A stretch of 64,000 bases of DNA from an uncultured bacterium (lineage in GTDB: Bacteria; Verrucomicrobiota; Kiritimatiellia; RFP12; UBA1067): contig CADAKF010000001.1 in assembly GCA_902788415.1 (NCBI GenBank), forward strand, positions 9,592-73,591. Direction: 5' to 3'. A program made the position numbers and the translations under genes. This document shows, piece after piece, positions 4,349 to 55,195 of this stretch; within the stretch, counting starts at the first letter, position 1, and every line of letters starts with the position of its first letter. The notes under the pieces were generated by a model, which saw only the letters and a program-made list of their open reading frames with translations, was not told where the DNA came from and did no database searches.

Positions 4349-4404
4349 TTAGACCTTAGACTTTAGACCTTAAACTTGAAACCTGAAACTTGAAACCTGA
4401 AACT
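4349..4404. repeat. Degenerate heptamer tandem array (AGACCTT/AAACTTG type) in the gspH-gspI spacer
   Basis: ttagaccttagactttagaccttaaacttgaaacctgaaacttgaaacctgaaacta; supplies the AAGG SD of gspI. Confidence 0.7.
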
Positions 4405-14354: not shown

Positions 14355-14374
14355 CTTCTCCCCCTCTCACCTTC

Positions 14375-21833: not shown

Positions 21834-22553
21834 TTATGAAATCATTTTCAAGACCTCTCTCCGCGCAACGGAAAGACTGTCTAGATGGAACTGATAGAAT
21901 ACACCAATTGCCCTCGCCGCGTCAAGGGGGGTCTGCGAGTTTCTTGCGTTTTCAGCACCATCCGCCAAATATTCGGCAACTTCTCGTGAAACGCGAATGC
22001 ATCGACCTTCATTCGCGCCAAACGTCCCGTTTTCAAGCGAAAACGCCGACCAACCGGCAGATTTGTCATAGTTCGCGAAGTCCGGCGCAAGCCCCGACAG
22101 CCGCAAGACCTCCAGTTCGAATCCCAACATTCCCGAGAGTGGAGAAGAGGAATCCTTTCCGCTTGCAAGCGACGCGCAAAAATCTAACCTCCGCGTCAAA
22201 GCTTCATACCACATCTCGCACTCCGAACCCATCGGGGCGAGCTCGGAGACAAGTCGGCGGAAGTATCCCGCAAGCGTAAGCGCGCGGTAGTCGCCGCGCA
22301 GGCCTTCGCGCAGCTCGAGCGGAACACAGTCTCGGAGGGCGTGCAGTTCGCCTTTCGCACGCGCGTAGTAGAGGATTTCGCAGGTATAGTTGAGGTCGTA
22401 CTGTCCGAGGAAGGCGCTTTTCGGGCGAACTGCGCCCTTCACGACCGTGGCGACCTTTCCGGATGGCGTCAGCCAGGAGACGATGTGACTTGTCCGCGAC
22501 CACGGACGCACGTCCAGGCAAACCGCCTCCGCCCGTATCGTCTCTCCCGCCAT
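21834..22553 (-). CDS. recO: DNA repair protein RecO, carrying an in-frame repeat insertion
   Basis: MAGETIRAEAVCLDVRPWSRTSHIVSWLT OB-fold N-terminus; insertion [14 protein letters not shown] from the palindromic element. Confidence 0.7.
   Translation of the reverse strand: MAGETIRAEAVCLDVRPWSRTSHIVSWLTPSGKVATVVKGAVRPKSAFLGQYDLNYTCEILYYARAKGELHALRDCVPLELREGLRGDYRALTLAGYFRRLVSELAPMGSECEMWYEALTRRLDFCASLASGKDSSSPLSGMLGFELEVLRLSGLAPDFANYDKSAGWSAFSLENGTFGANEGRCIRVSREVAEYLADGAENARNSQTPLDAARAIGVFYQFHLDSLSVARREVLKMIS
22141..22183 (-). repeat. Palindromic mini-element (family C) copy 2, in-frame in recO
   Basis: GGAGAAGAGGAATCCTTTCCGCTTGCAAGCGACGCGCAAAAATC; hairpin AAGCGGAA-TCCT-TTCCGCTT plus CGCTTGCAAGCG palindrome. 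Confidence 0.8.
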
Positions 22554-30474: not shown

Positions 30475-31260
30475 TTAGACGTCAGACCTCGCGAGAAGCA
30501 GTTTCTCGACGCGCGCAGCGTCCTCTGGCGTGTCGACGCCGACCCCCTCGTCCGACGTCTTCACGACCGCGATCTTCGCGCCCATCCAGAGGGCCCTCAG
30601 CTGCTCGAGCTTCTCCGTCTTCTCAAGCGCGCACGGCGGCTCCTTGATGTACCGTTTCAGGAATCCGCCGCGGTACGCGTAGATTCCCAAATGCCTCACG
30701 TACAGTTCCCTGCTGTCGCACGCTTGCTGTTCCCCAAACGGCTCCCGGTCCCGGTCGCACGGAATCGGCGCACGCGAGAAGTAGAGCGCCCGGTCCTCGC
30801 GGTCCAGGACGACTTTCACGACCGTCTTCGCCGCCAGGTCTTCCGCCGTCCTGATCGGCGTCACGGCCGTCGCCATCTCAACGTCGCTCTCGGTGAGCTT
30901 CGCGACGAGTTCGTCGATGAGCTTCGGATCGATGAGCGGCTCGTCGCCCTGGATGTTGACGAGGATGTCATCGTCGCCGAAATCCCCGCCGAAACGGCTC
31001 CGCGCCGCGCAGGCGATGCGGTCCGTCCCGCTCGGCAACTCCGACGGCGTCATCACCGCCACGCCGCCGTGTTCCTCGACGGCCTTGACGATGCGCTCGT
31101 CGTCCGTCGCGACGAACACCTCGTCGAGCGACTTCGCCTTCTTCACCGCCTCGACGACCCATGCGACGAGGGGCTTGCCCGCCAGCATCGCAAGCGGTTT
31201 TCCCGGAAAACGACTCGATCCGAATCGGCTCGGAATGATTCCATACTTCTTCATAGGCAT
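30475..31260 (-). CDS. kdsB: 3-deoxy-manno-octulosonate cytidylyltransferase (CMP-KDO synthetase)
   Basis: MKKYGIIPSRFGSSRFPGKPLA; DRDREPFGE; LGIYAYRGGFLKRY. Confidence 0.9.
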   Translation of the reverse strand: MPMKKYGIIPSRFGSSRFPGKPLAMLAGKPLVAWVVEAVKKAKSLDEVFVATDDERIVKAVEEHGGVAVMTPSELPSGTDRIACAARSRFGGDFGDDDILVNIQGDEPLIDPKLIDELVAKLTESDVEMATAVTPIRTAEDLAAKTVVKVVLDREDRALYFSRAPIPCDRDREPFGEQQACDSRELYVRHLGIYAYRGGFLKRYIKEPPCALEKTEKLEQLRALWMGAKIAVVKTSDEGVGVDTPEDAARVEKLLLARSDV

Positions 31261-31270
31261 ATTATAGCAT

Positions 31271-32149
31271 TTAGCGGTTGAGCAAATAGATTAAACCGAC
31301 GGCCATGCGCTCGAAATACATGACGAACGCGAGGACCGGATGGCGGAGCAACCTCTTCCACTTGCCCCGCTCGACGAAGACGCCGAAAAACCGGTACACG
31401 AGCCCGAACTGCTTCTTGAGCGCCGGGTGCCCCCTCCACTTCGCCTGATACGCCGTCATTGACTTTGAATAGTAGGCCTTCTTCTCCAGCATCCGCTTCA
31501 AGGTCAGCTGCTTCTCGTTGTGAACGAGGTGATTCTTCAGGATTGCACACTTCGCCCCTGTCTCAAGAATGCGGATGTCGAGTTCCCAATCCTCGCCGCC
31601 CGCAATCAGGCTCTCGTCGTATCCGCCCGTCTTCTCCAAGATCGACTTATGGAAAAGGCGCAGCGCATCAATGCACGTCCCATCATAGAACGACCGCTCG
31701 AAGTTCCGCGCCTTCACACGGATCCCGCTCCCCGTACGGATTTCTGGAATCCAGTAGGCGAGAGGACTTGAAACTTTAGATGCCAGATCCGGCCTTCCGT
31801 CGTCCGTCTTCCGCCCAAGGTCCTGCCCCCTCCCCGCAATCCCCAACATCTCCTTGATCGTCTCTTGCGGCAAAATCATGTCCGCATCCAGCACGATTAC
31901 CCACTCCGCCTTCGCCATCTGCCAGCCGAGGTTGCGCTGGGCGCACCGTTCGGGACCCTTGTCGAGCACGGTCGCCCCAAGGTCCGCGGCAATTTTCTTC
32001 GTGTCGTCCGTCGACGCATTGTCGACAACGATGACCTCGACTTCGTCCCGGACCGCATCAAACGCATGGATGCAGTTCGCAATGTTCGCCGCTTCGTTGC
32101 GGGTCGTGATGACGACGGACAGTTTCATCGGGCAATCCCCACTTTCCAC
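31271..32149 (-). CDS. Family 2 glycosyltransferase
   Basis: MKLSVVITTRNEAANIANCI...VIVVDNASTDDT...VIVLDADM (DxD). Confidence 0.75.
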   Translation of the reverse strand: MESGDCPMKLSVVITTRNEAANIANCIHAFDAVRDEVEVIVVDNASTDDTKKIAADLGATVLDKGPERCAQRNLGWQMAKAEWVIVLDADMILPQETIKEMLGIAGRGQDLGRKTDDGRPDLASKVSSPLAYWIPEIRTGSGIRVKARNFERSFYDGTCIDALRLFHKSILEKTGGYDESLIAGGEDWELDIRILETGAKCAILKNHLVHNEKQLTLKRMLEKKAYYSKSMTAYQAKWRGHPALKKQFGLVYRFFGVFVERGKWKRLLRHPVLAFVMYFERMAVGLIYLLNR

Positions 32150-33228
32150 GGCAGCGCGAAATACGCCGCGTCGTTCCGGCCCTCATGCCGCACTTTCCAG
32201 TCCGGCATCGGCAGACAGGCCAGCGTCTGCCAGGCCATTAAGGGCAAAAGCACCTGCAGCGCAATGAGGGCGGCCAGGCGATTGGGCTGGAGCTCAATCC
32301 GCGAGGCCAGCAGGCAGGCGAAGAACAGCGTCGGCAGGAGAAAGGTTGCCTGGTCCGGGACGAAATAGCGGACGAAGAAAAGGAAATTGACGGCCAGAAG
32401 CGCCCAGACCCATCCGGACGCCCGATCCGCCGGCATCTTTCCCTCACGGCGGCTCCACCAGGCGACCGCCACCGGCGCAAAGAAGCTCATCGCCGCCAAC
32501 GCGAAGTTGAAGGAGGTCAGCACAAGATTTGACGGCAGGAATCCCGCGACTTTCGCCCCGTAGTCGCCAACCAGGACATCAGCCGCACCGCGCGTCGCGA
32601 ACGCCCACAGCCAGCCGCACGCGCCAAGTCCCCACAGCGCCGCGAGCGGAACGGACAACGCAAGCTGCCACCCACGCGCACGGCTGAAAAAGACAGCCGC
32701 ATACAAAGGCGCCGCAAGCAGCGCGAAATTGTGCACCTCGAGATGCACCCCGTTCAGCAGGACCAGCGCCGCGAACCAACGCCAGCGTCCGTCCGCAAGA
32801 AACTTCAGCAGCAGCAGCGTCTCAAAGGCCGTAAAGGCCAGGTTCATCGTCTGCACCTCGGCAAGACAGCTGTTCCACCACAGCATGTGCGAAAGCCCGA
32901 AGATGACCGAGAAGCCGAGACAACGCGTGCACAAGAAGAACCCGCCGACCGATAGGGCGCCGAAAAAGGACGACACGAGCGTCACCTGAAACGGCGTCGA
33001 CGCGACGAGACGGCAGAACGCGACGTACAGCGGATGGGCGTTCGAGAAATGCGGACCACAGATCCAGTCTGACCGATCCAGCACCCACGACTGGAATTCG
33101 GCCGAGTCACCCCAGCCAACGCCCCGCTGCGCCGTCAGCGCGTAAAGGACGGAAAAACCGACGACGAGCGCAAGAAACCGCTCAAGCGGACGGCTGCTGG
33201 ACAGGTACTGACGGATCTGCCGGAGCAA
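32125..33228 (-). CDS. Polytopic membrane protein, possibly a DUF2723/PMT-like glycosyltransferase
   Basis: At least 9 predicted TM helices; RGVGWGDSAEFQSW loop; no confident family. Confidence 0.4.
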   Translation of the reverse strand: MLRQIRQYLSSSRPLERFLALVVGFSVLYALTAQRGVGWGDSAEFQSWVLDRSDWICGPHFSNAHPLYVAFCRLVASTPFQVTLVSSFFGALSVGGFFLCTRCLGFSVIFGLSHMLWWNSCLAEVQTMNLAFTAFETLLLLKFLADGRWRWFAALVLLNGVHLEVHNFALLAAPLYAAVFFSRARGWQLALSVPLAALWGLGACGWLWAFATRGAADVLVGDYGAKVAGFLPSNLVLTSFNFALAAMSFFAPVAVAWWSRREGKMPADRASGWVWALLAVNFLFFVRYFVPDQATFLLPTLFFACLLASRIELQPNRLAALIALQVLLPLMAWQTLACLPMPDWKVRHEGRNDAAYFALPWKVGIAR

Positions 33229-34018
33229 TGGTCACTCCTCTCGTCGGGTTCTTCGCTTGAAACTCCCAGGCGAGCGCCTTGTAGGCCTGCGCGCCCTTGG
33301 AGCGCGAATCGAGAAAGACGACCGGAACGCCCATCGACGGCGCCTCGCTGACGCGCACGTTGCGCGGAATCAGCGTTTCGTAGACCTTCTCTCCGAAGTG
33401 GTTGCGAACCTCATTCATCACGTCAGTCGTCAGCTTCGCGGTGGAGTTGACCATCGTGAAAACGATGCCGTTCAGCTCAAGGTTCGGATTGACGCTCTGG
33501 CGAATGCGTTCGATCGAGCCCGTGATGAGGGCAAGTCCGTCCATCGCAAGATACTCAGCCTGAATGGGAATGAGGACCCCGTCCGTCGCCACGAGCGCCG
33601 AGGTCATCACAATGCCGAGGGACGGCGGACAGTCCAGTAGGATGTAGTCGAACGTCCCCGACTCCTTCACCGGCTGAAGCGCGTCCTTGATCATCGTGAG
33701 CCGGTCCTCGCGCGCACCGAACTCCAGCTCGGCCCCGGCGAGATCGACCTCGGACGGAATCACATTCAGGTTGTCCCACTTGGTTGGCTGAATCACATCC
33801 GCAATCGGCTTTTGCCCCGACAGCACCGCGTACATCGAAACGCCCTGTTGCTTCTCAAGCCCCAACCCGAGCGTCGCGTGCGCCTGGGGATCGAGATCCA
33901 CGACAAGCACGGCCCGCTTGCGCGCCGAAAGTGCCGCGGCAAGGTTCACGACGGTGGTGGTCTTTCCCACGCCGCCCTTCTGATTCGCAATCGCAATGAC
34001 CCTGGTCATCCTATTCAT
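33182..34018 (-). CDS. parA: ParA/Soj-family partition ATPase
   Basis: MNRMTRVIAIANQKGGVGKTTT deviant Walker A; no parB adjacent. Confidence 0.85.
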   Translation of the reverse strand: MNRMTRVIAIANQKGGVGKTTTVVNLAAALSARKRAVLVVDLDPQAHATLGLGLEKQQGVSMYAVLSGQKPIADVIQPTKWDNLNVIPSEVDLAGAELEFGAREDRLTMIKDALQPVKESGTFDYILLDCPPSLGIVMTSALVATDGVLIPIQAEYLAMDGLALITGSIERIRQSVNPNLELNGIVFTMVNSTAKLTTDVMNEVRNHFGEKVYETLIPRNVRVSEAPSMGVPVVFLDSRSKGAQAYKALAWEFQAKNPTRGVTIAPADPSVPVQQPSA

Positions 34019-34062
34019 GCCGTCACACCTCTTAATCTCTTTACCGCTTAACCTCTTAACCG

Positions 34063-34593
34063 CTAAAAGAGCTTCCCTCTCTGCTGCAGCTCCTTGATGT
34101 TCCCGCCCGCGCTGCGGTTCACCTCTCTCAACCACAGCTCCACCAGCGCGACATCCCACGGATCGTCCACGCACTGCACAACCGCGGCAAACTTGTCGTT
34201 CGAGGCGATCACCTCGTCCTTCACGCGCTCGGCGACAACCGAGAGACGGTCTGTCACAATCTGCTCGGAGAAGTTGTCGCTTTTGAGACTATAGCCATAT
34301 TGGAGAATTCGAAGGTTCTCTTCGTTCTCCTTCAGGAACTCGAGATAGGCCCGAGCCTCGTCCCCGAAGCCCTCCGTCTCGATGTCCGACACGTGAGGCG
34401 TGATGACAAGCGGCTGATGTGCCTCAAGGCGACCCTCGCGGACGCGCACCTTGCCCGGATGGTCGTCTAGCTCGGAGATGAGGTGATAGTTGACGAGCGT
34501 GCTTCCGAACGTCTCGAGGCGATGGCTGGGTTCCACGAGGAACCTCGCGCTCTTCGCGGCATACCACCGATCAAAATCCGGATTCGAACTCAT
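34063..34593 (-). CDS. Hypothetical protein
   Basis: 176-aa ORF with coding-like composition; no recognisable motif. Confidence 0.4.
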   Translation of the reverse strand: MSSNPDFDRWYAAKSARFLVEPSHRLETFGSTLVNYHLISELDDHPGKVRVREGRLEAHQPLVITPHVSDIETEGFGDEARAYLEFLKENEENLRILQYGYSLKSDNFSEQIVTDRLSVVAERVKDEVIASNDKFAAVVQCVDDPWDVALVELWLREVNRSAGGNIKELQQRGKLF

Positions 34594-34686
34594 GTCTATA
34601 GCTTTTAGCTTTTAGCGTTTAGCGTTTAGCTTTTGGGGGCGCGCTCGTCCATCCCGTCCAGCAAGCTCACCGCTAATCGCCAATAG

Positions 34687-35193
34687 CTAACAGCTTCCCT
34701 TCCCGCAGCACTTCTTGTACTTCTTACCGCTGCCGCACGGACACGGATCGTTCCGTCCGACCTTCGGCTCCTCGCGCACAATCGGCTTCTCGCCGACAAG
34801 CTCGCCGTCCGCAAACTTCCAGCCGTCGTCCTCCTTCACGAAGTTCGAGACCTCGTGATGGTTGCAGAACTCGCCATTGGCCGTATAGAGCGCACGAAAC
34901 TCCACCATGCCCTTCTTGTGACGCTTCGTGCCGCCCTCGGTCTTGACGATCTCAAGCCCGTGCCACTCGGCAGACTCGCTCCACGCCCTTGAGGCCTCCT
35001 CGTCGAATTCCTCCTGCACCGCCCGTGTGGCGCTCGTCTTCAGGAACGCGATGTTGCCGGTCACGTACGAGCTGTACCGCGCGCGCATCAGCGTCTCGGC
35101 GGTCTCCGCCTTCGCCGTCCCAGCGATGATCGGACCGCAGCATTCTCCAAAAGTCTTACCCGACTTACAGGGACAAAGTTCTTCGTTGTTCAT
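34687..35193 (-). CDS. ychJ: YchJ-family protein with N- and C-terminal SEC-C zinc motifs
   Basis: [14 protein letters not shown] at the N-terminus and [14 protein letters not shown] at the C-terminus. Confidence 0.8.
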
Positions 35194-36838
35194 AATGTGC
35201 CTTGTATTTTACCAAAATCATCGACAGTATGAGAAGAGCAAAGGCAATCCCGAGCGGAATATCTCCCAACCAAACATAAACCGTCCACTGTTCACCTTCA
35301 CCTTTCACCTTCACCTTGTCAAACATCGTCCCCTCTTTGTCCACCAGCGGCCTCCCGTTCGGCCCGACCAGCCAGCTCGTCTTGCCGCCCGGCGCAATCG
35401 TCCCCGTGACGCCACTATTGCCGACACGCACCACCGGAAGCCCTGTCTCGATTGCCCGCGCGACCGCCTGCCACGCATGCTGCTCGGCCTCGACCGAGTG
35501 CGAAAACCAGCTGTCATTCGTGATGAAGAACAGAACCTTTGCACCCTTCTTCGCCAGCTCCCTCATTTGCGCCGAATCGGTGTCCTCAAAACAGATCGCC
35601 ACTCCCGCCTCAACGTGCTGTCGTACGCTTGCTGTCTCTCCCCCGATCCTCAGCGTCTTCAGCTCGCCCGCCGTACAGCTCCCGACCGGCGCAAGCTTCT
35701 GCAGCGCCGTAATCCACTTGTCGCCCGGAATGAATTCGCCGAACGGCACAAGATGCACCTTGTCGTAAACGTCTACCCTTGTTGTCGTACGCGTGTCATT
35801 CTCTTCCCCTGAATACAACGCAGCTGAGTTGAAGGTTTTCCCGTCTTCATACCGCGTTCCGCCCGCCAAGAGCGCCGCGCCGCCCGTCTTCTTCGCAACC
35901 CACTCGGCAAACCTCACCGCGCCCTGCTGGTCCACCGGCCCGAACTCGCACATCGCGCTCTCTGGCAAGACGACAAGATCGGGCCTCAGCATCGCCACAT
36001 TGTCCAACAACCTCTCGTAAATCTCAATCGGCCGCTCCTCCTGCGCTTTGAACACGCACGGAAAGTTCCGCTGCACCATCGCCACCTTCAAGCTCGCACC
36101 GTCCTGACAAGGCGCCGGCTCCAGCCGCGCCAAAGCATAAATCCCCCACACCACCCCGAACGCCAGCAATGTCTCAAGTGGCCCAAGACGCTTCAGATTG
36201 GCAAATCCGCTCCGCTCCGGCTTCCAAACCCTTTCGGCGATCCCCGCAATCGTCCCGTTGATGAGAACAACGACCGCCGAACAAAGGTACACGCCGCCAA
36301 GTGCCGCCGGCGCGCCGAACCCGCTGTTGACTGGCACCACCCCCAGCTGGTTCCACGCGAACCCGCCCAGGAACCGGCTCCGCACCAGCTCCAGCCCGCA
36401 CCACAACACCGGCTCGACAATCAAGATTCCCAACAATCTCCATCCATACCGGCCTCTGCGTCTCCGTGTCTCTGTGTTTAAATCGATCCCCTTCGCCCAG
36501 CGCCAATACTTCGCGCTCAGCCATCCGTACGCGGCAAAGTACGCCGCGCAATACGCCGCGAGCGCAAACCACCCCAAGACCACGAGCGGCCAGGGCCCGC
36601 CGTTCTTGACAATTGCCGGCATCCACGACAAGGTCGCAATCCAGTAGAAGACGCCGCTCTGGAACCAGCGCTTCGCGACGATTCCCGCGCTCACCTCGCG
36701 CCGTGAGAGCCACATCAGCGGCGCCAGCGCGAAAAGGCAGTCCATCCGCTCCCCCATCGGCGGATACGCCGCCCACAAGAGGAACCCCGGCAAATACCAG
36801 AGAAACGGCTTGAGCTTCTTATAAAGTTCCGTGAACAT
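35165..36838 (-). CDS. lnt: Apolipoprotein N-acyltransferase, with at least four in-frame repeat insertions
   Basis: N-terminal TM bundle plus CN-hydrolase domain ([10 protein letters not shown]..., VAICFEDTD). Confidence 0.85.
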
Positions 36839-36879
36839 GCCCGTCTGAGGTCTGAATGTCTTTCGTCTCCGCTAAAGTC

Positions 36880-39123
36880 TTACGCCGGATCCCAGCTCAA
36901 GTCCACGCGCGTCGACACCCCTTCCGGCGTTTCAAACGTCCGCGGCGTTTTCTTCGTCGTGACCCAAAGTCCATCCCGCGGAAAGACCGCCAGGTCCTCC
37001 GGCCGTCCCGCCGGCTCGGTGAGCGAAACGAAAAGCGGCGTCGACTGCTGCGTCAGGAACTCGACATCATATCCGCTTTCGGCCAGATACTGCAGGTTCT
37101 CGCGGGTGTTCTCCGGACTCGCCACAAACCTCTTCACACCCATCTCCGAGAGCTCCGCCAGGGCCCGCGAATTAAACGCATAGAGCGTCCAGTCGGCCGT
37201 GATATCCGTGACACCCAGCTCCTTCAGCATCCTCAAGGTCGCGAGATCGCTCGCCTCCCACTTCGAAAACCCCTTGCGCAGCAAGCCCTTCACCGTGACC
37301 CGCAAGCGATTGAATTCCGGTTCGGCGGTATACACAGGCAAAGCCAATCTGAACTTATCCGACCCGCTCGACTCCAGCCCGTCCCTATCCGACCCTATCA
37401 ACACGATAATCTCATCCCACTCGCCTGCCGGAACCTTCTGCCCAGACCGAATCTTAACCCTCCGCAGATGGTCGGATGGTCGGATGCACCGATGCTCCGA
37501 TGATAAATCACCGCCAACGAAGTCATCCGCGATTGCGGAGCCGATTTTCTCGTGTCTCTCCTTCTCCCGCGCCTCGTCGAGCTTTTCAACCAAGTCTCTT
37601 CTCAAGTCGTTCAGCACGCTCATCGGTGCGAACAGTTTCTCCGGATCGACAACACTCACCTTCCTGAGCCGGTAATCGCTCCCACCCAGTTTCGAGAACG
37701 CCTTCTTCACGCCCTCTGCCGTCTTCTCCGGATTCTTCGCAGGCTGCAACTCGCAATCGACGCATGCTTCGACAGCAAAGGGACTCAAGACCTTAGCCGA
37801 AAGACGCGAACCGGAAAGCGACACCTCAATATCCAAACCAATCCCGCCCTCGTAGTCGCTCGGCCTGAAGCTGGGCGTCGGGAACAGGCGCTTGACGGCG
37901 TTCGACATCGAGCAGTAGATCTTCATCCCCGGCTTGAGCGCCCGCTCGACGTCCTCGCTCACCAGCACCTCGACGTCCACGCCCGCGTTCACCTCGAACA
38001 CCGGCCTCCTTGAGATCGCCTGGCGCATCTCGACGATGCCCATGCCGAGATGGCGCCCCTCGTCCGTCATCGCCTCGAACTGCAGTCCATCATGCTTCTC
38101 CAGCCCGCGCGCCGTGTGGAACCGGAGCCAGCGCTGGCCCTCGCGGTCCTTCGTCACCCGCTTCACGACCCCGATTTCGGCACCCAAATGCCCCAAACTC
38201 TCCGAATCGATCACCCCGTCTTGCTGTCGTACGCTTACCGTCTTCCCCCGCCCCTCGAAATACAGCTTCGTCGTCCGCCGCGAGAAAACCGTCTCCAGAT
38301 CACCGATCGTCACCCCGCCTCTGTGTCTCTGTGTCTCTGGGTTTAAAATCTCCCGATAATACCGCGTCACGCTCGCGACATACAGGGCGCTCTTCATCCG
38401 ACCTTCGATCTTCAAACTGGCGACGCCCGCGTCCGCCAGTTTCCGCACGTCCTCCCCAAGACGCAAATCCTTCATCGAAAACGGATAAAGAGAGGTGAAG
38501 GCCGACGCCTGCCGACAACAGTACGGACATTTGCCGCGGTTCCCGCTCCGGCCCTTCTCCATTGCGCCAAACAAGCACAGCCCCGAAATCGAATAGCAGA
38601 GCGCGCCGTGGATGAAGACCTCGAGCTCCATGTCGCCGCAGCGCTTCGCAATCGACGCAATCTCCTCGAGCGACAGCTCCCGTGCGAGCACGACGCGCTT
38701 GAACCCGAGGTCCTTCATCGCGAGGACGCCCTCGAGGTTGTGCGCGACAAGCTGCGTCGACGCATGCAGCTCCAGCCCGGGAAAATGCCTCCGGCAGATC
38801 CGCGCAACGCCAATGTCCTGCACGATCAGCGCATCCGGCCGCACCTCGTCCAATCTCGCCAGCTGCTCAATCGCCGCCTCGATGTTATCCTCGTCGATGA
38901 CCGTATTAAAGGTGACGTAGACCTTCCGACGCCTCTCGCACTGACCGTCCCTATCGCACCTACAATACCTGAGCAGATTCTTGAGGTCCTCGATCCCGAA
39001 GTTGTCCGCAAACGCCCGCGCCGAGAACTCCGTGAGCCCGCAGTAGACGGCATCCGCCCCCGCCTCAAACGCGGCCAGCGCCGTCTCAAAGTTCCCGGCC
39101 GGAGCTAAGAGCTCACAGTCCAT
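36880..39123 (-). CDS. Peptidase U32 family protein (long form), with multiple in-frame repeat insertions
   Basis: MDCELLAPAGNFETALAAFEAGADAVYCGL and ELEVFIHGALCYSISGLC U32 signature regions. Confidence 0.8.
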   Translation of the reverse strand: MDCELLAPAGNFETALAAFEAGADAVYCGLTEFSARAFADNFGIEDLKNLLRYCRCDRDGQCERRRKVYVTFNTVIDEDNIEAAIEQLARLDEVRPDALIVQDIGVARICRRHFPGLELHASTQLVAHNLEGVLAMKDLGFKRVVLARELSLEEIASIAKRCGDMELEVFIHGALCYSISGLCLFGAMEKGRSGNRGKCPYCCRQASAFTSLYPFSMKDLRLGEDVRKLADAGVASLKIEGRMKSALYVASVTRYYREILNPETQRHRGGVTIGDLETVFSRRTTKLYFEGRGKTVSVRQQDGVIDSESLGHLGAEIGVVKRVTKDREGQRWLRFHTARGLEKHDGLQFEAMTDEGRHLGMGIVEMRQAISRRPVFEVNAGVDVEVLVSEDVERALKPGMKIYCSMSNAVKRLFPTPSFRPSDYEGGIGLDIEVSLSGSRLSAKVLSPFAVEACVDCELQPAKNPEKTAEGVKKAFSKLGGSDYRLRKVSVVDPEKLFAPMSVLNDLRRDLVEKLDEAREKERHEKIGSAIADDFVGGDLSSEHRCIRPSDHLRRVKIRSGQKVPAGEWDEIIVLIGSDRDGLESSGSDKFRLALPVYTAEPEFNRLRVTVKGLLRKGFSKWEASDLATLRMLKELGVTDITADWTLYAFNSRALAELSEMGVKRFVASPENTRENLQYLAESGYDVEFLTQQSTPLFVSLTEPAGRPEDLAVFPRDGLWVTTKKTPRTFETPEGVSTRVDLSWDPA

Positions 39124-40378
39124 TGAAATCCAGCGTCGCGAAGTAGTCGTCAAGCGTCTCCGCGCGGCGGATTTCGCGCACCGAACCGTCCTCCTCGAGG
39201 AGAAGCTCGGCGCTGCGGAGCTTGCCGTTGTACTGGAAGCCCATCGCGTGTCCGTGCGCACCCGCGTCGCAGATGACGACGAGATCGCCGCGCTCCAAGA
39301 GCGGCAGCACGCGCCCGATCGCGAACTTGTCGTTGTTCTCGCAGAGGGATCCCGTCACGTCATACGTCGTCGTGTCGCCACAGGTCTCCTTGCCGGGCAC
39401 CACGATCTCGTGGTACGCGCCGTAGAGCGCGGGACGCATCAAGTTCGACATACAGGCGTCAAGCCCCGCGTACAGACGATACGTGTTCTTGATGTGGCGA
39501 ACGCGAGCGACGAGATACCCGTACGGACCCGTAATGCAGCGTCCGCACTCCATGAAGAGCTTCAGCGGCTTGATGCCACGCTCGGCGATGCAGGCCTTGA
39601 ACGCCGCCTCGATGCCCTTTCCGACGTACTCGAGGTCCATCTGCTTCTGGTCCGGCTTGTAGGGAATGCCGATGCCGCCGCCGATGTTGATGAACTCGAA
39701 TTCGATGCCAAGCTGCTGCGAAAGGTCCGCCACGAGATCGAGCAGCATCTTTGCCGTGTCGATAATGTAGTCCGGATCAAGCTCGTTCGACGCAACCATC
39801 GTATGGAGCCCGAACCGCTTCACACCCGCGTCCTTCATCTGCCTGTAGCACTCGAAGAGCTGCTCGCGCGTAAAGCCGTACTTCGCCTCCTCGGGCTTGC
39901 CGATGATGGCGTTGCCGCCCTTCAGCGGACCGGGATTGTACCGACAGCAGAAGATGTGCTCGCCGAGCTCCGCGGCCTGCGGGCACCCCACCGACTCAAG
40001 CATGAACGGCCAGTGCGTGATGTCATCCAAGTTGATGATCGCGCCGAGCTCCCACGCCTTGCGGAACTCCTCCGCCGGTGTGTCGTTCGACGTGAACATG
40101 ATCTTATCGCCGACATTGCCGACCTTCTCGGCGAGGACGAGCTCCGCCATCGACGAGCAGTCACTGCCGAAGTCGAACTCCTTCAGAAGCTTCATCAGGT
40201 GCGGATTCGGCGTCGCCTTCACGGCGAAGTACTCGCGGAAGCCCTTGTTCCACGAAAACGCCTTCTTCAGACGCTTCGCGTTCTCGCGGATCGCCTTCGC
40301 GTCATAGATGTGGAACGGTGTCGGCCACTGCGCTGCAATCTTCTCCAGCTTCGCCTTATCGAACGGAATCTTTCTCAT
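39113..40378 (-). CDS. lysA: PLP-dependent decarboxylase, fold type III (diaminopimelate decarboxylase family)
   Basis: EYFAVKATPNP (PLP-Lys), FINIGGGIGIPY, CENND; start at MRKIPF with GGAG RBS. Confidence 0.8.
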   Translation of the reverse strand: MRKIPFDKAKLEKIAAQWPTPFHIYDAKAIRENAKRLKKAFSWNKGFREYFAVKATPNPHLMKLLKEFDFGSDCSSMAELVLAEKVGNVGDKIMFTSNDTPAEEFRKAWELGAIINLDDITHWPFMLESVGCPQAAELGEHIFCCRYNPGPLKGGNAIIGKPEEAKYGFTREQLFECYRQMKDAGVKRFGLHTMVASNELDPDYIIDTAKMLLDLVADLSQQLGIEFEFINIGGGIGIPYKPDQKQMDLEYVGKGIEAAFKACIAERGIKPLKLFMECGRCITGPYGYLVARVRHIKNTYRLYAGLDACMSNLMRPALYGAYHEIVVPGKETCGDTTTYDVTGSLCENNDKFAIGRVLPLLERGDLVVICDAGAHGHAMGFQYNGKLRSAELLLEEDGSVREIRRAETLDDYFATLDFNGL

Positions 40379-40379
40379 C

Positions 40380-41032
40380 TTAGTGTTCTCCATCTGCTGC
40401 GGGATCAAGGGCCCTGTCGCCCGTCCGCGCCTTGAAATCGTAAAAGCGGTTGCGCCCCTCGCAGCCCGTGACGCCCGCATAGAAGCCCTCGGGCAGGTCG
40501 GGATCCTCGAAGCCGAACTTCACGCCGCCGCACTCGACGGTCATGCGCATCTCGTCCCGTCCCGCGACCTTCGCCATGTTGACCTTGAGCTCGTACTTGC
40601 GCCTCGGCGCGAACGGCGCGCGGGCGAATGCCGCGAGATGCCAGCTGAGCTTGCCGCCCTCGTACGTGTAGTGCCAGACGTTGAGTCCCTCGTTGTAGAG
40701 CACCACCTCGTAGTGTTTCTTGAACGCATGACGCCCCTTGTCGTCGACGTCCAGCTCCGGCGTCAGCACGATGAGTGGCGCCATCAGATGGTCGAAGCTC
40801 ATCGTCGCGGAGACGTCGATCGTGCTGCCGGAGAGCTTCTGCGGATGCACAATGCTCGCATAGACCTCGGTCACGTGCTTCGCATAAAGCTCCTCGTCAC
40901 TCCACGCGGAGTCGCTCGGATTGACGATGCAGTCGTCCAGCTGGACGAATTCGTGCGCATAGTCAAACCGAAGCGACTTGAACTTCAGCCACTCGGACGG
41001 ATTCCACCTGCCGCGCGCAAAACTGACGTCAA

Positions 41033-41036
<4 letters not shown>
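40380..41036 (-). CDS. Hypothetical protein (possible concanavalin-like/DUF1961 fold)
   Basis: 218-aa ORF tightly packed between ileS and lysA. Confidence 0.45.
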
Positions 41037-44221
<3,185 letters not shown>

Positions 44222-45227: not shown

Positions 45228-46928
45228 TTACGTGTAGCGCAAGACCTCGTCAACGGTCGTATAGCCGTCAAGAATCGAGCGGATTCCGTCCTCGCGCATC
45301 GTGCGCATGCCGAGCTCGCGGGCCTTTTCGCGGATGATGAGCGTCGGCGCACGGTTGTTGACGAGCTCCCGGAGGGGCGACGACATGCGAAGGTACTCAA
45401 AGACGCCCTTGCGGCCCTTATAGCCCGTCCCATTGCAGGTCTTGCAGCCCTTGCCAAAGTAGAACGGACGCCCGCCGATCTGGTCGCGCGTCATCTCGAT
45501 GCGCTCCAGGGTCTCGTCGTCCGGCTCGTACGCCTGCTTGCATTCCTTGCAGCAGGTGCGGACGAGTCGCTGCCCGAGCACACCCTCGAGCGTCGAGGCG
45601 AGCAGATAGGGCGCGACGTTCATGTCCACGAGACGCATCACCGCGCCGGCGGCGTCGTTCGTGTGCAGGGTCGAGAAGACGAAGTGACCCGTCAGGGCCG
45701 CCTGGACAGCGATCTCGGCCGTCTCGAGGTCGCGGATCTCGCCGATCATCATGACGTCGGGGTCCTGACGCAGGAACGCGCGCAGCACCTTCGCGAAGGT
45801 ATTGCCCGCGTGTGCGTCGATCGGCACCTGGACGATGCCGTCCACGTTGTACTCGACCGGCTCCTCGGCGGTCAGGAGCTTCGTGTCGATCTGGTTGATG
45901 CGGCGGAGAACCGAGTAGAGCGTCGTTGTCTTGCCGGAGCCGGTCGGCCCCGTCACGATGAAGATGCCGTTCGGCTTCTCGATGTCCATCGTGATCTGCT
46001 CATAGACATCCTCCGGAAGCCCCACGTTCTCGAGATCGAGCGACGTCGTCGTCTGGTCGAGGATTCGCATGACGACCGACTCGCCGTGCGCCGTCGGCAG
46101 ACAGCTGACGCGAAGGTCGACCGGACGCCCCGCCACGGTGAGCGCGATGCGGCCGTCCTGCGGCACGCGGCGCTCGGCGATGTTGAGGTTTGAGAGGATC
46201 TTGATGCGCGAGATGATCGCGGGCGCCATCTTCACATCCGGCGCCTTCATCTCGTAGAGCGCGCCGTCGACGCGGTAGCGGATCTTGAAGTCATGCTCGA
46301 ACGGCTCAACGTGAATGTCAGCCGCGTGGTCGACGACGCCCTGGTAGAGGACGAGGTTCACAAACTTGACGACGGCAGACGAGTTCGCCGCGCTCTCCAT
46401 GTTGGCGATGTCGTTCGCGTTCGCGCCGACCGCCAGCGTCTCGTCGTCGGACATCCCCTCGCCGAGGGACTTGATCATGTCCGCGACGGACTCGTTCGAG
46501 TCGCCGTAGTACTGGGCGATGCGGTCCATCACGTCCTTCTCGCGGGCGAAGACAAACCGCACCTCCTTCGAGAGCGTGAACAGCATCTCGTCCGAGATGC
46601 GCGGATCGACGAGGTCGAACGTCGCAAGCGTCACGGACGAGTCGTCCGCCGCCACGGGAAAGACGTTGTACATGCGGGCCGTCGAGGCGGGAATCGCCTC
46701 GGTGACCTCGGACTCGATCGTCATCGCGCCGAGATCGATCGCCTCCGCGTCCTGATAGGCGGCCATCGCCGCAAGGAGCGAATCCTCATCGAGGACGCCG
46801 GAGTCAATGATCTGCCGGCGGACGGACTTGTTCTCGGTCTTGGCGAGCTCGGCGATGTCCTTCGCGCCGGCCTCGTCAACGTATCCGTTCTGTATCAGGA
46901 TTTGAAGTATTTGATCCATGGCAACCAC
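45228..46928 (-). CDS. GspE/PilB-family secretion ATPase (paralog 2)
   Basis: N1 domain, Walker A VTGPTGSGKTTTLYSVL, Asp/His boxes, tetracysteine CKECK...CKTCNGTGYKGRKG. Confidence 0.85.
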   Translation of the reverse strand: MVAMDQILQILIQNGYVDEAGAKDIAELAKTENKSVRRQIIDSGVLDEDSLLAAMAAYQDAEAIDLGAMTIESEVTEAIPASTARMYNVFPVAADDSSVTLATFDLVDPRISDEMLFTLSKEVRFVFAREKDVMDRIAQYYGDSNESVADMIKSLGEGMSDDETLAVGANANDIANMESAANSSAVVKFVNLVLYQGVVDHAADIHVEPFEHDFKIRYRVDGALYEMKAPDVKMAPAIISRIKILSNLNIAERRVPQDGRIALTVAGRPVDLRVSCLPTAHGESVVMRILDQTTTSLDLENVGLPEDVYEQITMDIEKPNGIFIVTGPTGSGKTTTLYSVLRRINQIDTKLLTAEEPVEYNVDGIVQVPIDAHAGNTFAKVLRAFLRQDPDVMMIGEIRDLETAEIAVQAALTGHFVFSTLHTNDAAGAVMRLVDMNVAPYLLASTLEGVLGQRLVRTCCKECKQAYEPDDETLERIEMTRDQIGGRPFYFGKGCKTCNGTGYKGRKGVFEYLRMSSPLRELVNNRAPTLIIREKARELGMRTMREDGIRSILDGYTTVDEVLRYT

Positions 46929-46959
46929 GACTAAACGCGAATCGCGAACAGCTAACAGC

Positions 46960-48087
46960 TTAACTGCCGTACCCCTCTTCCTTCAGCTTCTGGACGACGG
47001 ATTCAGGATCCTGCGACTTCGTGATGAGCTCCTCGTAGGAAATGAGCCCCTGCTTGTAGAGGTTGGAGAGCGACGTATCGAGCGTGAACATGCCGTACTT
47101 CGCACCGGTCTGCAGGTCGGACTTGATCATGTTCGTCTTGTTGTCGCGGATGCGCGAGCAGATCGCGTCCGTGCGCGTCATGATCTCGAACGCCGCGACA
47201 CGCCCGTGCACCTCGCCGTTCGCGTCGAGCTTCGGCAGGAGAATCTGCGAGATGACGGCCTGCAGGCCCGCCGCGAGCTGCGTGCGGATCTGCGCCTGCT
47301 GGTTCATCGGGAACGCGTCGACGATACGGTCGATCGTCTCCGCGGAGCCGGTCGTGTGCAGGGTGCCGAAAACGAGGTGTCCCGTTTCGGCCGCGGTAAT
47401 GGCCGCCGCGATCGTCTCGAGGTCGCGCATTTCGCCGACGAGAATCACGTCCGGGTCCTGGCGGAGCGCGCGGCGGATCGCCTCGGCGAAGCTCGGGACG
47501 TCGTCACCGACCTCGCGCTGTGTGACGATGGACTTCTTCGACTCGTGGTAGAATTCGATCGGGTCCTCAATCGTGATGATGTGGACGCTGCGCTCCTGGT
47601 TGATGACGTCGATCATCGAGGCGAGCGTCGTCGACTTACCGGACCCCGTCGGGCCCGTGACGAGGATCAGCCCGCGCGGCTTGAAGAGAAGCTCGCGGAC
47701 CGTGTTCGGCAGACCGATCTGCTCGAGCGTCAGGAGCCCCGAGGGAATCTGGCGGAGGACGGCGCCGTAGCGCTTCCTCTCCTTGAAGACGGACACACGG
47801 AAGCGCGTGCCGTCCGGGTGCGCGAGCGCAAAGTCCGCGCCACCGTTCGTCTCGAGCTCCTTCATGAGCTTCTCGATGTCGGGCTTGCGCTTGGGATCGT
47901 TCTCGGCGATGCCGTTCACGAACTCGGTGACGAGCGCCTGGCTCTCGTCGTCGTTCATCGGCTCCTCCGCAAGCGGCAGAAGCTCGCCGTGCACGCGCAA
48001 CAGCGGCGGCATGCGCGCGCGGATGTGGAGGTCGCTGCCCCCTTCGTCGATGATCGCCTGCAACAGCTCGTCTTTGTGGAATTGCAT
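46960..48087 (-). CDS. pilT: Twitching-motility/retraction ATPase PilT
   Basis: MQFHKDELLQAIIDEGGSDLHI..., Walker A LVTGPTGSGKST, AIRRALRQDPDVILVGEMRD; start at M114 of the track ORF, overlapping the upstream stop (TGATG). Confidence 0.9.
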   Translation of the reverse strand: MQFHKDELLQAIIDEGGSDLHIRARMPPLLRVHGELLPLAEEPMNDDESQALVTEFVNGIAENDPKRKPDIEKLMKELETNGGADFALAHPDGTRFRVSVFKERKRYGAVLRQIPSGLLTLEQIGLPNTVRELLFKPRGLILVTGPTGSGKSTTLASMIDVINQERSVHIITIEDPIEFYHESKKSIVTQREVGDDVPSFAEAIRRALRQDPDVILVGEMRDLETIAAAITAAETGHLVFGTLHTTGSAETIDRIVDAFPMNQQAQIRTQLAAGLQAVISQILLPKLDANGEVHGRVAAFEIMTRTDAICSRIRDNKTNMIKSDLQTGAKYGMFTLDTSLSNLYKQGLISYEELITKSQDPESVVQKLKEEGYGS

Positions 48088-49766
48088 CAGTTCGCGTCTC
48101 CCATGGTGACTCTCAGGACCTCGGCGAGGGACGTCATCCCGCTCGCCACCTTCAGCATGCCGTCTTCGCGCAGCGTCCGCATGCCCATCTCGCGGGCACG
48201 CTGCCGGAGCAAGGTCGCCGGCGCGTGGTCGAAGATGAGCCGCTGGATCGTATCGTCGACCTTGAAGATCTCGAAGATGCCCTTCCGGCCCTTGTAGCCG
48301 GTCTTGCCGCACCGGTCGCAGCCCGCGCCGTGGTACATCGTGTCGGGCACGGTCGCGTTCGTCCCGCTCGCAAGGCCCGTCAGCATCCTGATCTCGCGCT
48401 CGGTCGGCGTGTAGCTCGTCTTGCACGTCTCGCAGATGGCGCGCACGAGACGCTGGGCCATCGCCGCGCGGAGCGCGGAGGCCACGAGGAATGGTTTGAC
48501 GCCGATGTCGAGGAGTCGCGTGACGGCGGACGGCGCATCGTTCGTGTGCAGCGTCGAGAAGACGAGGTGGCCCGTGAGGGCCGCCTCCATCGCGATGTCG
48601 GCCGTCTCCGCGTCGCGGATCTCGCCGATCATCACAATGTTCGGGGCCTGGCGCAGGATCGAGCGGAGCGCCGCCGAGAAGTCGAGGCCGACGTCCTTGT
48701 TGACCTGCACCTGGTTGATGCCGCTCATCTGGTATTCGACCGGATCCTCGACCGTGATGAGCTTCTTGTCGGGCGTGTTAATCTGACCAAGACAGGCATA
48801 GAGCGTCGTCGTCTTGCCCGAACCGGTCGGCCCCGTCACGAGCACCACGCCGTCGGGGAGCTTGATGAGCTTTTCGAACGTCGTCTGGTCGTCGGAGAGA
48901 AAGCCAAGCTGCGGCAGGCCGAGCGAAAGGTTCGACTTGTCAAGGATTCGCATGACGATCGACTCGCCGTGATTCGTCGGCACCGACGAGACGCGCAGGT
49001 CGAGATCGCGCCCGCCGACCGTAATCTGGATGCGGCCGTCCTGCGGAATGCGCTTCTCGGAGATCTTCATCTTCGACATGATCTTGAAGCGCGAGAGAAT
49101 CGCGCCCTGCAGACGCTTCGGCGGCGAGTCCATCTTGCGGAGCGCGCCGTCGATGCGGTAGCGGACGCGAAACTCCTTCTCCATCGGCTCGATGTGGATG
49201 TCGGACGCCTTCATCTTGATCGCCGTGGTGATGATCATGTTGGCGAGCTTGATGACCGCGCCGTCGTCGCCCACGGCGGCGGCGTCGCCCAGACCCTCCT
49301 CGTCGCGCGTCGAGACGGTGGACTCCTCCTCGGACGGATAGAGCTTCGCCATCGCGGCCTTCACCTCGGCGAGAGGCGACAGGACCGTCTGGACGTCTTT
49401 CCCGGAAAGGACATAGCGGAGCGAGTCAACCGCGTCATAGCCCATCGGATCGATGAGCGCCACCGTAACGGAGCTCTCGTCCGCCACGACCGGGACGACG
49501 CCGTACTTCTTGGCGATATCAGCCGAAATCGCCTTCGCCGCCTCCTCGTTGATGGCAGAGGCATCGAGATGGCAGTACTTGAGGCCGAACTGGTCGGCAA
49601 TCGTGCCAAGAACCGTGTCCTCGTCCAGTGCGCCGCCCGCCACCAGGACGTCGAGCGTCGTCTCGTTCTCCGCCTTCATCGAAGACGCGGCGGTCTGAAC
49701 CTGCTCCGCGGTCAGATACCCGCGCTCGGTCAGAAGCTGAAGGACATACTCGTCGTTACTTGTCAT
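48087..49766 (-). CDS. GspE/PilB-family secretion/pilus-assembly ATPase (paralog 1)
   Basis: Walker A VTGPTGSGKTTTLYACL; tetracysteine CETCK...CDRCGKTGYKGRKG; GSPII N-domain. Confidence 0.85.
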   Translation of the reverse strand: MTSNDEYVLQLLTERGYLTAEQVQTAASSMKAENETTLDVLVAGGALDEDTVLGTIADQFGLKYCHLDASAINEEAAKAISADIAKKYGVVPVVADESSVTVALIDPMGYDAVDSLRYVLSGKDVQTVLSPLAEVKAAMAKLYPSEEESTVSTRDEEGLGDAAAVGDDGAVIKLANMIITTAIKMKASDIHIEPMEKEFRVRYRIDGALRKMDSPPKRLQGAILSRFKIMSKMKISEKRIPQDGRIQITVGGRDLDLRVSSVPTNHGESIVMRILDKSNLSLGLPQLGFLSDDQTTFEKLIKLPDGVVLVTGPTGSGKTTTLYACLGQINTPDKKLITVEDPVEYQMSGINQVQVNKDVGLDFSAALRSILRQAPNIVMIGEIRDAETADIAMEAALTGHLVFSTLHTNDAPSAVTRLLDIGVKPFLVASALRAAMAQRLVRAICETCKTSYTPTEREIRMLTGLASGTNATVPDTMYHGAGCDRCGKTGYKGRKGIFEIFKVDDTIQRLIFDHAPATLLRQRAREMGMRTLREDGMLKVASGMTSLAEVLRVTMGDAN

Positions 49767-55143: not shown

Positions 55144-55195
55144 ATGCTTTTAGCTGTTAGTGGCTGTCACCTTCAATTTCACTAAACGCTAATAG

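Follow-up and report, generated by a model that had tools for sequence, protein, structure and literature searches.

A 23-nt mini-repeat within housekeeping genes of rumen and gut Kiritimatiellae and its association with a putative Y1-DprA transposase gene

Results

Five copies of a mini-repeat within four essential genes

A mini-repeat, designated here family A, occurs five times in a 64-kb stretch of contig CADAKF010000001.1 from an uncultured bacterium of the Kiritimatiellia (hereafter the window; L and P numbers denote the loci and proteins that were fetched for comparison). All five copies lie on the plus strand in one orientation, within four minus-strand genes that are essential: kdsB (30475-31260), lnt (35165-36838), which carries two copies, a U32 peptidase gene (36880-39261) and ileS (41033-44221). 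A search of the window with the 23-mer motif CTTGCTGTCGTACGCTTGNTGTC, allowing up to three mismatches, gave four plus-strand matches, starting at 30709, 35614, 38220 and 41588, against zero expected from shuffled sequences. A fifth, more decayed copy has its core at 35778-35800 in lnt. An nhmmer profile built from 166 family-A copies of other genomes, with the window left out of the training set, recovered exactly these five copies with expectation values (E) of 2e-8 to 1.3e-3, and no sixth copy was found in the window by this profile, the next best match having E = 2. The five copies of the original prediction are thus real and their similarity is significant; the 9-nt direct repeat flanking GTACG, followed by a C-run, that had been described for them is also present.

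Each copy is read on the minus strand, that is, in the direction of its host gene. The best match, in ileS (41588-41615; E = 2e-8), consists of a core at 41588-41610 followed by a C-run and encodes GGQQAYDSK; the core fits the pattern CTTGCTGTCGTACGCTTGnTGTC without mismatch and has one difference, at a variable position, from the majority 23-mer. The first lnt copy, at loop site 2 of the gene, is a 42-nt block (35606-35647; E = 7.7e-7) composed in order of CGCCTCAA, a core with one mismatch (35614-35636) and TCTCCCCCGAT, and encodes 14 residues including TASVRQH. The kdsB copy (30709-30735; E = 3.5e-5) has a core with three mismatches to the 23-mer (30709-30731) plus a C-run, reads GGGGAACAGCAAGCGTGCGACAGCAGG on the coding strand and encodes GEQQACDSR. 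In the U32 peptidase gene, a core with two mismatches (38220-38242) and the C-run that follows it lie in a block at 38218-38254 (E = 5.2e-5) that encodes GKTVSVRQQD. The decayed second lnt copy, at loop site 1 (35768-35812; E = 1.3e-3), has the core CTTGTTGTCGTACGCGTGTCATT and encodes 15 residues including NDTRTTT, a decayed form of DSKRTTA. The boundaries previously proposed for the last two copies, 38218-38254 and 35776-35810, were accurate to within 2 nt.

Translation places the five copies in three reading frames: ileS (QQAYDSK within GGQQAYDSKK) and kdsB (QQACDSR within GEQQACDSRE) share the first, lnt copy 1 (TASVRQH) and the U32 peptidase gene (TVSVRQQ) share the second, and lnt copy 2 (NDTRTTT) alone uses the third. 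This grouping and the use of three frames had been given in the text of the original prediction, the title of which erroneously spoke of two. The copies are clustered within 10.9 kb (30709-41615) of one co-directional gene run, the other 53 kb of the window being devoid of them; the clustering has a post hoc p of about 0.004, and copies in related loci also cluster locally. Local hopping or regional tolerance are possible causes. A chromosome site of the parS, Ter, matS or iteron type, a reading prompted by the clustering, was rejected because close relatives have the sites empty or held by other repeat families. The window copies are 0-6 mismatches away from the consensus and are shared with some sister lineages, which makes them probably inherited insertions rather than very recent ones.

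Empty and filled sites in orthologous genes

The repeat-encoded peptides are not conserved among orthologs: close orthologs with an empty site (72-93% protein identity) exist for all five window positions. The net gain per window site ranges from 18 to 36 nt, all net changes are multiples of 3, and the host open reading frames (ORFs) remain intact with the five inserts in place.

Among about 105 Lnt orthologs (67-85% identical), the flanks of the insertion sites are nearly invariant. Site 1 is empty in many orthologs (Y-STNSISI-YDKV) and site 2 in four (LR-DF-GVAICF), and the canonical family-A peptides DDSKRTTAR and ETASVRQQ are found in others. The empty allele of site 2 (P0072 on L052) reads CTG AGG, GAT TTC, GGT, and the 42 nt of the window replace the 6 nt GAT TTC, for a net gain of 36 nt; this site is represented by 83 distinct sequences among the orthologs, including tandem double family-A copies. 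At site 1, 45 nt stand in place of 21 nt (net gain of 24 nt; empty allele S-TNSISI), and P0017 (L054) carries there the canonical GAC AGC AAG CGT ACG ACA GCA AG, encoding DDSKRTTAR, of which lnt copy 2 of the window is a point-mutated orthologue.

The ileS site is empty (KIAGGDVKGLED--LIEDELNVK) in three syntenic orthologs with 91-92% amino acid identity and is filled in the window and in L058, with a net gain of 24 nt. The same gain was observed for the U32 peptidase gene, in which L058 shares the copy and three syntenic orthologs with 81-84% amino acid identity (L059, L060 and L061) have an empty site. kdsB is non-syntenic in four related contigs, and its site was compared through protein orthologs instead: the commonest and shortest loop among 120 KdsB orthologs, EPDLASGLYV, is empty, close orthologs carry the canonical EPFGEQQAYDSKELYV (net gain of 18 nt), and other repeat families occupy the same loop. 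When the insertion points were compared with solved homolog structures, the KdsB and IleS inserts fell in a gapped, variable stretch.

No target-site duplication was detected at any junction examined (lnt, ileS, the U32 peptidase gene and a KduI-like gene described below), and host codons were replaced. Insertion is thus usually a messy replacement of a few loop codons and not a clean insertion. A consistent target sequence was looked for at the junctions and none was found. Word-like microhomology is present in two empty sites, GGGGAC...AAG in ileS and GACGACAAG in a phage gene; a speculative model, in which a 14-nt unit inserts 3' of a word-like target, fits the 14-nt arrays of the family and two empty sites but not the others. 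An apparent remnant of an inverted partner beside the ileS copy was discarded, the match being better explained as homology to the empty allele.

The repeat unit and its arrangements

The family-A unit is sharply bounded, 22-23 nt long and of the form GACAGCAAG-CGTAC-GACAGCAAG, equivalent to a 14-nt period in 1.64 copies, and its flanks are weakly G-rich. Its coding-strand sequence is (G-run)GACARCAAG-CGTAC-GACAGCAAG. Core positions of the profile consensus, nggngnGACAGCAAGCGTACrACAGCAAGg, are 92-100% conserved, with the exception of three R/Y sites. A script check found the 23-mer to be free of stop codons not only in the three coding-strand frames, as had been proposed, but in all six.

Folding of the window singlets is not more stable than that of shuffled sequence (z = -0.57 to +0.73), so that no monomer hairpin was found in them, and the monomer is without terminal inverted repeats. 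Neither a GTAG nor a CGTC tag is present in the family-A consensus. Inverted doublets at L041:2320-2395 and L013:2340-2415 have folding energies of -38.5 and -24.1 kcal/mol, respectively (z = -13.9 and -6.4). An inverted partner lies at most 110 nt away for about 38% of family-A copies and for none of the five window copies. The arrangements comprise singlets, tandem arrays with a period of 14, 27, 32 or 33 nt, and inverted doublets whose members lie about 13-60 nt apart; singlets are the commonest class, with 59 of the 109 copies in coding sequences (CDS) and 26 of the 63 intergenic copies.

Several other readings of the unit were discarded. An Rfam scan of the window returned only two tRNAs, which leaves no RNA family to account for the motif; a hairpin, terminator or riboswitch was dropped because the singlets are unstructured. 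A sigma-70 promoter was rejected since the copies lie mid-gene and no sensibly spaced -35/-10 pair was seen in the 23-mer on inspection by eye. In-frame copies, orthologous positions and independent assemblies rule out an adapter or assembly artefact.

Distribution and turnover across genomes

The exact 21-mer was found in 51 loci among representative genomes of 185,579 species, all of them from rumen or gut metagenome-assembled genomes labelled Kiritimatiellae, Lentisphaerae, Verrucomicrobia or 'RUG', and was absent from the viral contig collection that was scanned. These loci and the window, 413 kb in total, contain 172 family-A copies at up to four mismatches, 109 of which (about 63%) lie in called CDS and 63 in intergenic DNA, counts that are approximate since the genes were called with a simple codon-usage caller. 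The copy was missing in 49 of 207 orthologous comparisons, some of them with flanks that are 90-95% identical. Such presence or absence between closely similar flanks, together with the occurrence of the repeat in many species, supports the proposal of a mobile element that is tolerated in all frames.

Turnover at single loops can be followed in two further cases. In a loop of the KduI-like gene, four species have no insert, one (L039) has family A (net gain of 27 nt) and another (L041) has, at exactly the same position, a different family, C. The ParB-like gene of Mu-like prophages whose sequences around the sites are about 98% identical has two family-A copies in one prophage (L033:3338-3360 and 3766-3788), in place of which copies of family B, GACGGCTCGCCGGGGACGGCTCGCC, stand in another (L034:6547 and 6124). 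Copy-and-paste spread of the repeat takes place in the genomes of rumen and gut Kiritimatiellae and in their Mu-like prophages, and we regard it as very likely that the copies under study represent such a copy-and-paste family inserted into loops.

Tolerance within genes and strand orientation

The CDS copies comprise 89 in sense and 20 in antisense orientation, with all three sense frames in use. Peptides encoded by the sense frames are hydrophilic (mean Kyte-Doolittle values of -1.0 to -2.1), whereas those of the antisense frames are hydrophobic or cysteine-rich (+1.4 to +2.4), and no called CDS uses the frame that gives LLSYACC; part of the 89:20 bias is therefore explained by filtering at the protein level. 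Such filtering is not the whole cause of the orientation, because intergenic copies between co-directional genes are also biased (31 sense versus 10 antisense). The locally G-rich strand is the one that carries GACAGCAAG in 84 cases versus 24 (p = 5e-9), in short contigs in which GC skew and gene strand are confounded. The orientation bias fits strand-specific insertion into single-stranded DNA. Copies persist in genes owing to their stop-free frames, the hydrophilic peptides of the sense frames and the survival only of net multiples of 3 nt. That many families share the same loops is most simply explained by selection for permissive loops, and target preference is a possible reason.

A candidate enzyme with Y1 and DprA-like domains

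One ORF is both flanked and interrupted by family-A copies in four loci (L041, L039, L031 and L028). The layout includes a copy ending 6 nt before the ATG, tandem copies upstream, doublets in the interdomain linker and copies on the 3' side. A hidden Markov model (HMM) search detected the gene in six of the 51 motif-selected loci, namely these four and, as partial gene copies, L010 and L017; by our estimate, which assumes a genome of about 3.5 Mb, the chance of finding a given single-copy gene in an 8-kb locus is about 0.2%. The enzyme is probably single-copy, and no tnpB partner was seen with its gene.

The predicted protein has the invariant motifs MPDHFHG (HUH) and Y-x3-N. The family-A-associated enzyme alone retrieved nothing from Pfam or from PDB sequence searches. 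A profile search of 1.84 billion representative proteins revealed 5,997 relatives with E <= 1e-3, of which 851 reach E <= 1e-10. All 50 of the distant relatives compared match the NCBIfam model REP_Tyr_transpos (best E = 1.7e-16) and 25 of the 50 match Pfam Y1_Tnp, and a profile of distant relatives matches the TnpA structures of ISDra2 and IS200 (E about 3e-4) as well as DprA (E = 0.004). In an AlphaFold model of the N-domain, in which the predicted local distance difference test score (pLDDT) is about 80-93 in the core and 62 on average, the top 29 PDB matches are TnpA of IS200, IS608 and ISDra2 and the REP-associated tyrosine transposase (RAYT; REP, repetitive extragenic palindrome) of E. 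coli, with E from 9e-6 to 7e-4 (1.5e-5 for 4er8, the E. coli enzyme). A fold search with the C-terminal domain (pLDDT 77-95) gave a match to DprA (E = 2.4e-5), and the model of the whole protein alone gave a weak Y1 match at rank 43. The identity of the enzyme thus emerged from the profile search that bridged to distant relatives and from the fold searches, which support a predicted HUH/Y1 transposase fold of the IS200/RAYT type joined to a DprA-like domain that would bind single-stranded DNA.

The repeat and the enzyme gene vary together

Three contigs that were fetched only for the enzyme (L055-L057) have copies in one direction, an inverted copy just before the ATG, and then copies in the linker and at the 3' end. 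Their repeats differ with the enzyme. L055 (48% identity) has three copies of AACAGCAAGCGTACAACAGCAAG just upstream of the gene and an 18+18-nt palindrome of the same word inside the gene and at its 3' end; L056 (67% identity) has the variant GACAACAAGCGCACGACAACAAG, and L057 (64% identity) the variant GACAACAAGRCCACRACARCAAG with a 30-nt period. Spacer variants track the enzyme lineage, CGTAC changing to CGCAC or RCCAC. A metagenome scan for the gene added L063, with family-A words upstream of, inside and downstream of the enzyme gene, and L062 and L064, with A-like words in part of that layout. At least four, and probably all six, of the gene-selected contigs have a family-A layout resembling a REPtron, in which direct and inverted copies surround the transposase gene.

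The association extends to relatives of the enzyme. Their own 11-mer occurs at least three times in or beside the gene in 37 of 80 enzyme-relative loci of the metagenome scan; among those with full flanks, this was the case for 17 of 30 loci versus 6 of 30 control regions of the same loci and 1 of 31 window tiles. The words differ by lineage, some being small tailed hairpins in the style of classical REPs and others hairpin-free direct repeats with a 13-18-nt period. These results suggest that REPtron-like systems form a large group in bacteria of the rumen and gut, most of it undescribed, and the repeat family has a conserved physical and evolutionary association with the Y1-DprA gene.

As a separate observation, cognate repeats of L062-L141 often lie in frame inside the enzyme gene, at about +340 and about +600. 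They include the palindromic ATCGCCGATAA, CAATACTTGAC beside a hairpin in 82-nt arrays, and GCCGGCATTCC with a C-run and a 13-15-nt period.

Other repeat families and sequence features

Family C is represented in the window at 35291-35317, in lnt, by the minus-strand sequence GTGAAGGTGAAAGGTGAAGGTGAACARTGGACG, which encodes 11 residues. It has stop codons in two frames, unlike family A, and is probably the first of the mini-element families that the original prediction had distinguished. Family B (GACGGCTCGCCGGGGACGGCTCGCC(CCACC)) has a 14-nt period, is free of stop codons in six frames and is absent from the window.

Lnt orthologs (P0017-P0120) have loop sites after window residues 343, 394 and 510, as well as after about residues 122 and 240. 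Single sites are occupied by 72-83 distinct sequences, some of them expanded to 50 residues, and the families found there include TSNRLQST, GVESNRVELGSGRV, GRAQLDHLDC, STSDLDLNL, EQSNNRTI and (GGAAGAC)n, read as GRRKTEDR. The KdsB loop between DRDR and RHLGIY (P0297-P0416) contains FQTSQTS, STFNLQPS and STSTSNLD, as do Lnt loops, which indicates that these families too are genome-wide.

Two dispersed repeats of the window were taken as intergenic without gene mapping: CCAAGAGGGGAGAAGCGGATTCCTTTCCGCTYGCAAGCGA... at 14156-14204, 22133-22181 and 57328-57376, and a heptamer-like repeat, CTAAACGCTAATCGC..AGCTAACAGCTT, at 34666-34703, 46931-46968 and 55182-55219. Short tandem repeats with periods of 7/14 or 8/16 nt lie at 4349-4404, 14352-14392, 62481-62507 and 62634-62658, with the units TTAGACC/TTAGACT, AAACTTG/AAACCTG, CCCTGAT/CCCTGAC and GTTAAGCG/GTTGAGCG, and resemble the internal periodicity of the mini-elements. 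The stretches 45517-46325 and 48400-49208, 2,883 nt apart, share 70-75% identity across several hundred nt (families D1, D3 and D15), and family D9 has a third, partial copy at 47623-47674 with a coding motif of the Walker-A-like form GxxGxGKT. The D-family stretches look like tandem paralogous genes of the ATPase or ABC type, unrelated to family A.

Discussion

A candidate mechanism of mobilisation

The window copies are probably best understood as singlets of a lineage-wide repeat family, tiny and non-autonomous, that would be mobilised in trans by a cognate Y1-DprA enzyme. In this mechanism, the Y1 domain would cut and join single-stranded copies, as the TnpA enzymes of IS200/IS605 and the RAYT enzymes do, and the DprA-like domain would bind the strand and may protect or anneal it once it has been excised. 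Insertion would take place at the replication fork, into single-stranded DNA, which would explain the strand bias. The copies themselves land in, or replace, a few codons of surface loops in ordinary genes. That the Y1-DprA transposase is what mobilises family A is likewise a probable rather than a firm conclusion.

Several observations weigh against it. The role of the enzyme is deduced from its association with the repeats, and its gene was not found by HMM search within the 64-kb window. The monomer is free of hairpins and singlets are the commonest arrangement, whereas classical Y1 and RAYT enzymes recognise hairpins, so that the cutting and pasting of singlets is not explained by classical hairpin recognition. 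The junctions are unclean and a few host codons are replaced, which fits repair or annealing at least as well as a peel-and-paste reaction. The family-A enzyme matches the NCBIfam model of REP-associated tyrosine transposases (NF047646) over nearly its full length with E = 1.4e-4 and 21.8 bits, under the cut-off of 80, and the AlphaFold models are of moderate confidence, with a mean pLDDT of 62-63. The confounding of GC skew with gene strand and the simple gene calls also temper the orientation and CDS counts. At shared orthologous sites, the 23-mer is about 93% identical versus about 72% in the flanks, a difference affected by the way in which the loci had been chosen.

A bolder version is tentative and, in our judgement, rather doubtful. 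In it, the Y1-DprA enzymes would constitute an unrecognised REP-like branch that pastes hairpin-free repeats with a 13-18-nt period by way of the DprA-like domain, whose strand protection, annealing or RecA loading would replace hairpin-guided cleavage. In rumen Kiritimatiellae, surface loops of housekeeping proteins would then be continually rewritten by many such families acting together, amounting to a natural, high-rate, in-frame 'loop cassette' mutagenesis of essential proteins.

It is unlikely that the 23-mer is instead a selected cis-element, a DNA or RNA binding site for a host factor, possibly a domesticated Y1-DprA nuclease or binding protein. Copying would still be needed for its spread, and its persistence would follow from function and not from neutrality. 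The higher identity of the 23-mer than of its flanks, with the ascertainment caveat given above, would agree with such a site, as would the orientation bias in intergenic DNA, the position of several copies 1-50 nt upstream of a ribosome-binding site and ATG, and the clustering of the five window copies in one gene run. RAYTs are, moreover, widely regarded as domesticated single-copy genes (PMC5581495). However, a position-specific function is unlikely when the same loops are empty in close relatives or held by families B and C; the monomer is unstructured and has no Rfam match, and copies decay by point mutation, as those at 35778 and 30709 of the window have done.

Spread by recombination appears quite unlikely as well. 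Short single-stranded copies, produced by any nuclease or arriving from outside, would be patched in at microhomology by RecA- or DprA-assisted annealing, under a drive resembling biased gene conversion or that of uptake sequences, and the Y1 domain would at most be supporting. Replacement junctions that lack a target duplication are what annealing would leave, microhomology exists in the empty ileS and phage-gene sites, the DprA fold is one that loads RecA on incoming single-stranded DNA, and one family has been swapped for another at the same site of near-identical prophages. Yet other empty sites, such as lnt site 2, show no microhomology, the window density of about one copy per 13 kb is lower than would be expected of an uptake sequence, and the element is strongly oriented. 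Invariant Y1 catalytic motifs imply that nuclease activity matters, and tandem arrays and inverted doublets around the gene are the classical REPtron signature.

That the similarity arose in place by slippage or mutation bias in loops, or as an assembly or adapter artefact, with nothing copied, is hardly credible: the unit is indeed internally repetitive (14-nt period) and many other loop occupants, such as (GGAAGAC)n, look like cryptic simple sequence, but identical 21-23-mers occur in unrelated genes, three frames, intergenic DNA, many species and independent assemblies, zero matches are expected by chance, and in-frame orthologous copies with point differences rule out adapters.

Implications

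If family A is mobilised in trans by a Y1-DprA enzyme, REP/RAYT biology would be extended to the Planctomycetes-Verrucomicrobia-Chlamydiae (PVC) group, with a new architecture combining Y1 and DprA-like domains, and a hairpin-free monomer would challenge the model in which a hairpin plus a tag is recognised. It would be a case of selfish DNA residing mainly inside essential genes, where a hydrophilic design free of stop codons in six frames lowers the cost of insertion. Loops in Lnt, KdsB, IleS, the U32 peptidase and the KduI-like protein would tolerate almost any insert of 6-50 residues, which could be of use in protein engineering. The repeats would interrupt metagenome assemblies and make the proteins of rumen datasets seem more diverse than they are, and they could serve as fine-scale strain markers and to link prophages to hosts.

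Comparison with known systems

The closest match to family A is the REP/REPIN-RAYT system, exemplified by E. coli TnpAREP (PDB 4er8), with which the layout and the enzyme fold agree. Both have a short multicopy repeat (20-40 nt; 23 nt for the family-A core), copies in direct and inverted orientation around a probably single-copy HUH/Y1 gene (the REPtron, seen for family A in related genomes), and inverted doublets (REPINs) that form long hairpins. In both, the repeat variants follow the lineages of the enzyme, and the system is confined to a single lineage, with apparently vertical inheritance. The in-frame repeats inside the transposase gene likewise have a counterpart in RAYT subclass 2.4 (PMC6006769). 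On the other hand, family A fails three defining features of REPs: a palindromic monomer, a GTAG/CGTC tag and an extragenic location. Its enzyme scores under the cut-off of the curated RAYT model and has, at its C-terminus, a DprA-like domain not seen in any published subclass. Family A is not a REP in the strict sense, but it works like one. Y1 subclasses with large C-terminal domains have been described, and the published subclass table contains no DH[FL]H enzyme having Y-x3-NP and a DprA-like tail (PMC6006769). No paper in the searchable literature pairs DprA with RAYT or TnpAREP, and the Y1-DprA fusion appears to be undescribed.

The IS200/IS605 insertion sequences (IS) and their miniature derivatives, the palindrome-associated transposable elements (PATEs), share with family A the catalytic fold, the expected single-strand mechanism and a strand bias relative to replication. 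They differ in that the family-A enzyme gene is not a multicopy mobile unit with subterminal hairpins, and the family-A repeat is far smaller than an IS end. [quoted passage not shown] The DNA uptake sequences (DUS) of Neisseria and the uptake signal sequences (USS) of Pasteurellaceae resemble it as short, bounded, lineage-specific words that lie in genes, in several frames and in inverted pairs, and through the connection with DprA. Uptake sequences are 9-12 nt long, occur about once per kb, and have neither a transposase-gene arrangement nor tandem arrays. Family A, in contrast, is 23 nt long, strongly oriented and, with five copies per 64 kb, roughly ten times rarer.

The Rickettsia palindromic elements (RPEs), reportedly presented by Ogata et al. 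in 2000, are the classical selfish DNA in coding genes, and are palindromic and longer. RPE-1 is about 100-150 bp long and specific to Rickettsia. [quoted passage not shown] With these elements family A shares the nature of selfish repeats that lie in frame in housekeeping genes, including those for tRNA synthetases, and that are tolerated in loops and translated; Opitutus terrae belongs to the same PVC superphylum as the family-A hosts. RPEs and intragenic REPs are palindromic, whereas family A is a non-palindromic 23-nt singlet that typically adds 6-12 residues, and at family-A loops several unrelated families compete, with very rapid turnover. Insertions of REPs and RPEs in frame have been described before, and the basic phenomenon is not new. 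Specialists would be interested in a unit that has no hairpin, an enzyme whose architecture is new, a lifestyle that is mainly intragenic and the extraordinary range of occupants held by single loops.

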